IMG/VR virus record: IMGVR_UViG_2537561977_000011
Strand: one strand, 5' to 3'
Origin: a virus
Taxonomy: Duplodnaviria > Heunggongvirae > Uroviricota > Caudoviricetes
Length of the DNA: 21,738 nucleotides
Position 1 is the stretch's first letter; each line of letters begins with the position of its first letter. A model generated the notes under the pieces. It saw only the letters and a program-made list of their open reading frames with translations. It had not been told where the DNA came from and searched no databases. Position numbers and translations under genes: made by a program. Positions 332 to 2,317 of the stretch are shown in pieces.

Positions 332-901
332 TTAAATACTCGCTACGTTATACCAGGTGCCATTAATCAGTTTTTGCAGTGGTCGGTAATACACACCGTC
401 AACGTTATCCGCTGAGTTACGGCCGGTATCCGATATCGCCATCCCTGACAGCCCGTGTCCCGAAGGTGCGCGAAATCTCCACGAAACGGTGTTACTGCCG
501 GGGCTGTAATACATTTCATGGCCATACCGCACATCCTGTACCCCCTCTGTTCGATATTTATAGCGGGCATCGAAGTTTCCGTAATTTAACGGAATTACCT
601 GTCCGTTTACGGCGAACGTGATGCTGTTATCTGTATTCCTCTGGCTGAAAAAATGCCAGCCTGAATCATCACCAAGCTCTGCAACAACAGGCCTGGATGG
701 ATTACCCCACAAATAAAACGCTGCATTTTTCGTGGAGTTGTTGGCGCTGGATAACGTGAATTTTCTGGCAGTTCCGGCCTGAATATTTTTTAACGCTATC
801 GCCACACCATTCTGGAAACGAAATACATGCTGTCCATTCGCATAAACATCCAGAATGCCGTCGCCGTTTTGTTTTATACCTGTATCGGGTAATGCTGCCA
901 A
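332..901 (-). pseudogene. side tail fiber protein, C-terminal receptor-binding fragment, separated from its N-terminal part by IS1 (native coding 332..887; ORF start at 901 lies inside IS1)
   Basis: Translation ...DTGIKQNGDGILDVYANGQHVFRFQNGVAIALKNIQAG...RPVVAELGDDSGWHFFSQRNTDNSITFAVNGQ...INGTWYNVASI carries the conserved C-terminal motifs of P2 gpH / Mu S / lambdoid Stf-type tail fibres. The first 14 nt of the ORF are IS1 sequence. Confidence 0.8.
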
Positions 902-942
902 CTTACTGATTTAGTGTATGATGGTGATTTTAAGGTGCTTGC

Positions 943-1218
943 GTGGCTTCCATTTCCATCAGATGTCCTTCCTGCTCCGCTACTGAAGGCGTGGTGCGTA
1001 ACGGCAAAAGCACTGCCGGACATCAGCGCTATCTCTGCTCTCATTGCCGTAAAACATGGCAACTACAGTTCACTTACACCGCCTCTCAGCCCGGTACGCA
1101 CCAGAAAATCATTGATATGGCCATGAATGGCGTCGGATGTCGCGCCAGTGCACGCATTATGGGCGTTGGCCTCAACACGGTTTTACGTCACTTAAAAAAC
1201 TCAGGCCGCAGTCGGTAA
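943..1218 (+). CDS. insA: IS1 InsA (DNA-binding regulator; N-terminal part of the InsAB' transposase)
   Basis: GTG start at 943; translation (M)[65 protein letters not shown]... is near-identical to IS1 InsA as recalled, including the zinc-finger CPSC...CSHC. Confidence 0.9.
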
Positions 1219-1640
1219 CCTCGCGCATACAACCGGGCAGTGATGTGATTGTCTGCGCTGAAATGGACGAACAGTGGGGCTACGTCGGTGCTAAATCACG
1301 TCAGCGCTGGCTGTTTTACGCGTATGACAGGATACGGAGGACGGTTGTGGCGCACGTCTTCGGTGAACGCACTCTGGCCACACTGGAGCGTCTTCTGAGC
1401 CTGCTGTCGGCCTTTGAGGTCGTGGTATGGATGACGGATGGCTGGCCGCTGTATGAATCACGCCTGAAGGGAAAGCTGCACGTTATCAGCAAGCGTTACA
1501 CTCAGCGCATTGAGCGACATAATCTGAATCTGAGACAACATCTGGCAAGGCTGGGACGGAAGTCACTGTCGTTCTCAAAATCGGTGGAGCTGCATGACAA
1601 GGTCATCGGGCATTATCTGAACATAAAACACTATCAGTAA
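1137..1640 (+). CDS. insB: IS1 InsB reading frame (expressed as the InsAB' fusion by -1 ribosomal frameshifting at the A6C motif 1194..1200)
   Basis: 167-aa frame ...[58 protein letters not shown]...[15 protein letters not shown] is about 90% identical to IS1 InsB as recalled; TTAAAAAAC lies in the insA/insB overlap. Confidence 0.85.
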
Positions 1641-2317
1641 GTTGGAGTCATTACCCCTGTATCGTTATCCCCGAAAGCAATTGAATTCCCCCCCAGGGCG
1701 TTCTGAACGCCGATACCCAGCGCACCATTGACCTGCGAACCACCGCCAACAGACACTTTATGCGACATGGATATTTCACCCGTCCGCAGATTAATGGTGA
1801 ACGGGCGCAGGGGACCAATATCGCCATTTTCCCCCTGACCTTCACTGGTGGGAATAAGGTGCAGGCACTCTTCCGAACGACGAAAAATCAGGCCAAAAGC
1901 TTCGTTGAAAATCCTCAGCGCATTAACACCACGGATTTTCAGCTCTCCGGTCATGGTGTCGCCATCACGCTGAACGGCATTTTTTGCCTTATCCACCGTG
2001 GGTTTTAATCCGAGGTTTTCAACAGCCTCATCCCTGTCTTCCACATCCGAAAGGTTATTTTTTATCAGCAATGCCTCTTCGTTAATTGCACCGCCCACCA
2101 GCAATAATATAGCCTTATATAGCTGGTCGTGTTCTTCTTTATTCAGTTCTATCCCGGCCTTCTCAATGACACCACAGATTTCCTCCTGAATGGCATTCCA
2201 CATGGCACTGTTCAGCCAGGTAGCAAGACGTCCTGTGCGAAGATTTCCGTCAGTAAATCCGTTCTTACCCGGACCAAACTTATCTTTTACCGCAGTCAGC
2301 GTATCAATCCTGTGCAT
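1634..2317 (-). pseudogene. side tail fiber protein, N-terminal fragment interrupted by IS1 (native coding 1656..2317; the ORF reads into IS1 and stops at 1634)
   Basis: ORF ends ...NALGGNSIAFGDNDTG then IS1-encoded VMTPTY*. GAGGA lies 5 nt upstream of the ATG at 2317 (alternative in-frame ATGs at 2323 and 2329). Same frame as fragment 332..887 once IS1 plus one duplication copy (777 bp) is removed. Confidence 0.8.

Follow-up and report, generated by a model that had tools for sequence, protein, structure and literature searches.

The systems closest to the locus described here are already known. The Stx2e phage phiP27 encodes a tail fibre (L54, 332 aa), its chaperone (L55) and a second fibre pair (L56/L57) after the baseplate genes L50-L53, and it carries stx2e. 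Tail fibre S of Mu (gp49, 504 aa; PDB 5yvq) and gpH of P2 (669 aa) likewise have a chaperone gene after the fibre gene. Members of the IS1 family are ~768 bp long, with imperfect inverted repeats of ~23 bp starting GGT, insA followed by insB in the -1 frame, an A6C motif, and a 9-bp duplication of the target; in the work of Sekine and Ohtsubo, as cited in bioRxiv 10.1101/2023.06.07.543989, the A6C frameshift motif serves to fuse InsA and InsB' into the transposase. Among the elements that have expanded in Shigella and in lineages of enteroinvasive E. coli is IS1, and many of the pseudogenes there arise chiefly by IS insertion (PMC7373316).

The window, by which we mean the whole stretch of DNA analysed, is the entire 21,738-bp contig ADUP01000036.1 from the draft assembly of Escherichia coli LT-68 (GCA_000188815.2), to which an exact match of the truncated fibre product led. 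This strain is named enterotoxigenic in one paper (PMC4038620), so that its pathotype is tentative, and our literature searches for it returned a single passing mention. The reading that we favor, with a probability of roughly 93%, is that one transposition placed an intact IS1 of the IS1F type in the tail-fibre gene of a phiP27-like prophage, with 9 bp of target duplicated, and that this prophage is now a defective remnant. The support comes from the anatomy of the IS, the in-frame restoration of the fibre gene, the contiguous alignments of its two fragments, an empty site in a relative, a second assembly with the same insertion, and a second element, ISEc60, elsewhere in the prophage. The coordinates of all features are given in Table 1.

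Table 1. Features of the LT-68 window, numbered from its first base.
Feature	Position	Strand	Basis
Tail-fibre assembly (chaperone) gene, 5' part; the contig end cuts the gene	1-329	-	Pfam Caudo_TAP; phrog_24494, phrog_136
Tail-fibre gene, C-terminal fragment (distal shaft and putative receptor-binding tip, IKQNGDG...NVASI); no start codon of its own	332-887	-	ORF 332-901, homology
Left copy of 9-bp target-site duplication, CCTGTATCG	879-887	.	Direct reading
IS1, IS1F isoform, 768 bp	888-1655	+	99.35% to K-12 IS1F
IS1 left terminal inverted repeat	888-910	+	Sequence reading
insA, 91 aa, GTG start as in IS1A	943-1218	+	Pfam Zn_ribbon_InsA E=6e-20, HTH_Tnp_IS1 E=5e-30
insB frame, open from end to end	1137-1640	+	Pfam DDE_Tnp_IS1 E=1e-74
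-1 frameshift motif TTAAAAAACTC (A6C slippery)	1192-1202	+	Comparison with IS1A and IS1F
IS1 right terminal inverted repeat	1633-1655	+	Sequence reading
Tail-fibre gene, N-terminal fragment (attachment and shaft); runs into IS1	1634-2329	-	ORF; exact product on record
Right copy of 9-bp target-site duplication, CCTGTATCG	1656-1664	.	Direct reading
Mu gp48-like / YmfQ baseplate gene directly upstream; its end overlaps the fibre-gene start	2304-2894	-	Pfam Phage_Mu_Gp48 E=2e-25
ISEc60, IS4 family; splits prohead protease gene, ~12 bp flanking duplication GGGGATTTCCCC	15597-16893	-	Sequence comparison

The inserted element has the length, the GGT-starting imperfect repeats, the insA-insB layout with its A6C motif and the 9-bp target duplication (present as a single copy in the empty-site relative) that mark the IS1 family. 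Its left end starts GGTAATGCTGCCAACTTACTGAT and its right end is the reverse complement of GGTAATGACTCCAACTTACTGAT; the 23-bp terminal repeats match at 20 of 23 positions (88% for 24-nt arms). Two given 9-mers would be identical by chance with a probability of 4^-9, or ~4e-6. InsA agrees with that of IS1A at 87 of 92 positions, the stop counted. The IS1 genes lie on the plus strand, antisense to the fibre gene. A promoter-like site at 895-922 overlaps the left inverted repeat and coincides in position with the known insA promoter; near IS1, sites resembling promoters or terminators were no commoner than in shuffled sequence, and an Rfam scan of the whole window gave no matches. With its frames and ends intact, this copy appears compatible with activity.

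The initial annotation had called this IS1 a divergent variant with about 90% identity in InsB. The figure is right against IS1A of K-12 (152 of 167 InsB residues; 91.15% for the DNA), whereas against K-12 IS1F, a catalogued isoform, 763 of 768 bases are identical (99.35%). Many E. coli genomes contain copies 100% identical to the element in the window, whose best match reaches at least 99% in 3,928 records. Like K-12 IS1F it is 768 bp long and has the same inverted-repeat ends, the insA/insB pair with the A6C motif and a 9-bp duplication; unlike it, it has an open insB, where an internal stop has led to the annotation of K-12 insB7 as a pseudogene. By these comparisons it is the ordinary IS1F-type isoform with intact frames and not an odd variant.

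Direct reading of the sequence and joining of the frames confirmed the core of what had been proposed for this site: the IS1, its perfect 9-bp duplication, and an in-frame removal that yields a 406-aa product. Deletion of 888-1664 (777 bp) fuses ORFs 1634-2329 and 332-901 into that one frame, which reads ...NALGGNSIAFGDNDTG up to the junction and IKQNGDGILDVYAN... beyond it; relatives are annotated from the fifth codon (MHRIDT, start at 2317), which gives 402 aa. The truncated product of 227 aa ends in the IS-derived residues VMTPTY and is on record as EFZ58368.1 and STE77700.1, under the misleading database name "long tail fiber protein p37 domain protein". Against residues 1-222 of phiP27 L54 it is 97.7% identical. 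The restored 402-aa and 406-aa proteins and the 189-aa C-terminal ORF all had zero exact matches in a collection of 15 billion proteins. The insertion parts codons 1-221, for attachment and shaft, from codons 222-402, for the distal shaft and tip; the upstream fragment ends six IS-derived codons later, and the downstream fragment is left with neither start codon nor promoter. Fibre function would be lost, and a polar effect of IS1 is probable both for the chaperone gene and for a second fibre cassette, which in relatives and in the phiP27 layout lies downstream of the chaperone gene.

Both fragments align contiguously on single homologues, as a check proposed in the initial annotation had asked of two halves of one gene. 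The restored protein matches the tail-fibre family phrog_6859 from end to end (E=4e-197) and Mu S in four stretches spanning N-terminal, shaft and tip regions (E=1e-27); identity is 47% with P2 gpH over residues 99-402 and 42% with the P1 fibre over residues 34-401. Taken alone, the C-terminal fragment has ~47% identity with the corresponding end of P2 gpH, and its tip matches that of Mu S. The uninterrupted orthologue in E. coli FDAARGOS_944 covers 100% of the restored gene at 97.4% DNA identity. The motif restored by removal of IS1 had been described as conserved, and this held: in a five-sequence alignment with the FDAARGOS_944 orthologue, phiP27 L54, a 346-aa E. coli relative and P2 gpH, the stretch NALGGxSIxxGDNDTGxKQNGDGxLDVYAN is invariant, P2 gpH included, and IS1 sits within it, between DTG and the following residue. 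The gene order is that of Baseplate_J, Phage_Mu_Gp48, fibre and a Caudo_TAP chaperone of the Tfa/U type. The gene thus shares with Mu S the N-terminal, shaft and tip matches, with P2 gpH the motif, and with both the neighbouring chaperone gene, although the restored fibre is shorter than either. From this homology we infer that the C-terminal tip binds the receptor. The available sequence showed no invertible segment.

These comparisons identify the gene as a baseplate tail fibre of the Mu S / P2 H family in a contractile-tailed, phiP27-like prophage, and not as the lambda-type side tail fibre for which it had been taken. Upstream of it are the Mu-like baseplate genes gp45-gp48, the sheath and the tube, and its best solved relative is Mu S. 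The location of lambda Stf, downstream of gpJ and lom in a phage with a non-contractile tail, does not apply here, where sheath, tube, tape measure and a Mu-like baseplate lie upstream. The restored protein has no Pfam match to PF08400, the prophage tail fibre N-terminal domain, which relatives encode in the second fibre gene downstream. The earlier label is nevertheless understandable, because an 813-aa Stf-type gene adjoining gpJ and lom in RMDEC465 bears the same tip and chaperone module at 95% DNA identity. The C-terminal module is thus shared between lambda-type Stf and P2 H-type fibres.

The rest of the window agrees with this assignment. Going upstream from the fibre gene, the Mu gp48-like gene is followed by baseplate J, gp46, gp45, hub, DNA-circularisation, tape measure, tube and sheath genes, and further on by HK97-type head genes, the terminase and an HNH gene; the prophage combines an HK97-type head with a Mu-like contractile tail and a fibre of the Mu S / P2 H family. 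Among named phages phiP27 comes closest, with 95.1% DNA identity over 78% of the query (1665-21738). Eighteen phiP27 proteins match at 90-99%, and the large terminase is another allele (36%). The layout of fibre, chaperone and second fibre pair after the baseplate is shared with phiP27, whereas the receptor-binding half of the fibre differs: L54 has 332 aa against 402 aa in the restored protein, and the tips are 43% identical. The cargo differs as well, in that relatives of the LT-68 prophage carry ipaH downstream instead of stx2e. Single-base differences between the window and two relatives fall mostly in homopolymer runs, where indels stand at 4939, 7966, 10369, 10671, 14716 and 20129/20177. 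The capsid and large-terminase genes seem to have broken frames, but these breaks too lie in homopolymer runs, are single-base differences from intact relatives and may be sequencing errors.

The same IS1 at the same site, with an identical 227-aa product, is present in a second, independent assembly, GCA_900448215.1, on the 392-kb contig UFYN01000009.1 (locus L002), where the chaperone gene is complete at 181 aa. Since this assembly shares both the site and the truncated product, we regard the insertion as real. An empty site is found in the prophage of FDAARGOS_944 (locus L004): its fibre gene is uninterrupted and has a single CCTGTATCG, and the blocks of its alignment to the window overlap by exactly 9 bp (L004 2682-2690). 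Upstream of IS1 the two differ at 3 of ~5,100 positions, and the remaining window is 99.7-100% identical block by block; in summary, the FDAARGOS_944 prophage is 99.8% identical to that of LT-68. Among 5,426 complete E. coli genomes, which served as the comparison set for occupied and empty sites, there were 0 occupied sites and no record of a nearly 100% identical restored gene split by ~777 bp; the best match there was the uninterrupted 97.4% orthologue. In a scan of one genome per species, a 25-mer of the left flank plus duplication gave 0 matches. The exact pre-insertion allele was found neither in that scan nor in the protein look-up. Contigs ending in ...GDND (P0006) were considered as possible further IS1-occupied sites and set aside as unproven, because the conserved motif is itself a repeat boundary that breaks short-read assemblies.

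These relatives also bear on the age of the insertion. Since it took place, LT-68 and GCA_900448215.1 have come to differ by one base in the IS, by an 18-bp change in a 9-bp tandem repeat, and by a cluster of 14 substitutions at 380-556. The insertion predates the split of these two, and it arose either after the FDAARGOS_944 lineage had separated or independently of that separation. The perfect duplication had been read as a sign of recent insertion, an argument that does not hold: with ~6-9e-7 substitutions per site and year (PMC7373316), it would take ~1e5 years for a change to be expected in 18 bp, so that the duplication is a poor clock and the relatives provide better evidence of age.

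The fibre gene is not the only casualty. The ISEc60 insertion in the prohead protease gene leaves matches to residues 1-166 and 163-216 of the phiP27 protease on either side of the element. A third assembly, in which the contig ends at the ISEc60 junction, has an identical truncated protease product; FDAARGOS_944 does not have ISEc60 in its protease gene and has two other copies, in the sheath and portal genes. Because ISEc60 splits the protease, we count the LT-68 prophage as a probable defective remnant, and it is mainly this insertion on which that view rests. Related loci have elements of the IS1, IS3, IS4 and IS66 families at many other positions, usually with ipaH downstream, and over 4,000 blocks of the protein collection list the exact sheath protein. 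The IS1 in the fibre gene is one of many independent IS insertions degrading a widely shared prophage. It resembles the IS-made pseudogenes of Shigella and enteroinvasive E. coli (PMC7373316), from which it differs in no way of kind, being one more site.

The insertion had also been described as precisely reversible. This is formally true in that the frame is restored, and precise excision between the 9-bp repeats would be possible: IS1 has a low basal rate of excision, probably by slippage between direct repeats, which an IS-excision enhancer raises (bioRxiv 10.1101/2023.06.07.543989). The exact restored protein is, however, absent from the 15-billion-protein collection, and excision would not bring back a viable phage, since ISEc60 also splits the protease. 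For the prediction that any particles would be non-adsorbing, the second fibre cassette downstream had been overlooked, and the question is moot if no particles form. The event is of an already known kind: nothing is new in the isoform, in the family of the fibre, in the type of prophage or in the erosion of prophages by IS expansion in Shigella-like lineages (PMC7373316). It matters little beyond annotation, where the fibre gene should be entered as a pseudogene made by a catalogued IS. It does offer a clean worked example of target duplication with in-frame reversibility, and a single further case of how a prophage with ipaH-bearing relatives may become a fixed, immobile island.

Three other accounts of the insertion were weighed. 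One is that IS1 marks a recombination joint, the tip and chaperone module having been brought in by recombination between IS1 copies or by an IS1-mediated rearrangement. Relatedness to FDAARGOS_944 does change here: of the 67 differences within the first 6 kb, all but 3 (64) lie at 69-771, in the fibre tip and chaperone, so that against the 3 differences upstream there are 64 in 887 positions downstream of IS1, all within 69-771, and the switch must fall between 771 and 2204, an interval that contains IS1. However, the window and FDAARGOS_944 do not differ in the 116 bp that adjoin IS1 downstream (772-887), which places the switch away from the end of the IS. Moreover, IS1 copies from different sites would leave unlike 9-mers, whereas here the two are identical and removal restores an invariant motif in frame. 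The fibre tip and chaperone form an exchangeable module common to other prophage types, whose homology ends ~30 bp upstream of the IS site also where no IS is present, so that IS1 lies ~30 bp inside the boundary; this agrees with ordinary homologous exchange at the conserved motif. We consider a joint formed by IS1 very unlikely. The motif is the usual crossover point for exchange of receptor-binding modules, and IS1 lies just inside it by chance.

An erroneous join of contig ends that had stopped at IS1 copies hardly deserves credence, even though homopolymer errors are probable in a draft contig such as the window and IS1 is multicopy in such genomes: both flanks belong to one gene, the duplication is perfect, the frame is restored, and the same junctions stand on the independent 392-kb contig. 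It is also highly improbable that the insertion was selected and not simply a product of neutral decay, whether because it locks in an ipaH prophage by doing away with infectious particles or because IS1 excision works as a reversible fibre switch. Such a role could be argued from the retention of the prophage in thousands of assemblies despite repeated insertions in structural genes, from the ipaH cargo downstream in relatives, and from the known excision of IS1, which is open to enhancement (bioRxiv 10.1101/2023.06.07.543989). On the other side, the other lesions in the same prophage would make a fibre switch pointless, the insertion is found in two assemblies only and in 0 of the 5,426 complete E. 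coli genomes, and scattered IS insertions are what neutral decay predicts under IS expansion (PMC7373316). We therefore retain a single transposition of an IS1F-type element as our reading of the site.

A last observation concerns the fragment left downstream of IS1. At eight sites within 380-556, the window agrees with a paralogous fibre-tip module (L009), where GCA_900448215.1 agrees with the FDAARGOS_944 orthologue. This patch suggests gene conversion later than the insertion, with a paralogue as the donor, although a chimeric consensus in the draft assembly would account for it as well. On the strength of the patch one might propose that the orphaned C-terminal fragment is not inert and, after insertion, has continued to exchange sequence with the paralogous fibre-tip modules that other prophages of that genome carry, with IS1, 30 bp inside the module boundary, perhaps influencing where exchange ends; we regard this as unlikely. 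If it were true, IS-split fibre genes in ipaH prophages would be a reservoir of receptor-binding modules.

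The end of the window that carries the fibre tip and its chaperone forms a module that recurs, at 94-95% DNA identity, in two other prophage types (loci L009 and L010). One sharer is a second baseplate-bearing prophage, of the contractile-tail type, in E. coli FDAARGOS_944, the strain whose nearly identical copy of the window prophage has an empty IS1 site; another is a lambdoid gpJ-lom-Stf prophage in strain RMDEC465. Downstream of the module, both types have a second fibre gene, then a DUF4376 gene and an ipaH gene; the annotation of L009 shows the fibre gene in two pieces, both incomplete.

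Within this module, 14 substitutions separating the window from GCA_900448215.1, the other assembly with the same IS1 insertion, are clustered in one short patch, beyond which only 3 substitutions distinguish the two assemblies over the 12.3 kb that they have in common. At 8 of the 14 patch sites, the window matches the paralogous fibre module of another prophage type. This pattern suggests either gene conversion postdating the IS1 insertion or a chimeric draft consensus.

Coordinates of features in the window
Feature	Position	Strand	Description
Fibre-tip and chaperone module	1 to about 1693		
Substitution patch	380-556		
Single-base insertions/deletions	4939, 7966, 10369, 10671, 14716, 20129, 20177, 21708		relative to closely related prophages
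Tandem repeat	7340-7375		perfect 9-bp unit AGAAGGTAA, 4 copies
160-aa ORF	7428-7910	-	between tape-measure and DNA-circularisation genes
ISEc60	15597-16893		IS4 family; flanked by a duplicated stretch of about 12 bp (GGGGATTTCCCC)
Large terminase	18802-20559	-	

The single-base differences were called against two relatives where the region was common to them and against one elsewhere. Most fall within runs of 4-7 identical bases. The differences make the reading frames of the capsid, large-terminase, tube and hub genes look broken, and they are probably draft-sequencing errors.

ISEc60 splits the gene for the HK97-type prohead protease. The element is missing from this site in the FDAARGOS_944 prophage, which carries two other copies, in its sheath and portal genes, and the truncated protease product of the window is also found in a third assembly, GCA_007771325.1.

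For the large terminase, the window and the Stx2e phage phiP27, the closest named relative, carry different alleles (36% protein identity), although identity reaches 75-99% in the flanking HNH, portal and other head genes. A module has been swapped here inside the packaging region. The N-terminus of the 160-aa ORF resembles a signal peptide or lipoprotein (MIKPFLMTVAILTSCCAQA...), and over its whole length the ORF matches phrog_5586 (function unknown). phiP27 lacks this ORF at the corresponding position, and it is possibly an accessory gene that was inserted into the tail module. In translation, the tandem repeat gives the DNA-circularisation protein a series of LPS repeats at its N-terminus, and two relatives have 2 copies fewer (an 18-bp difference).
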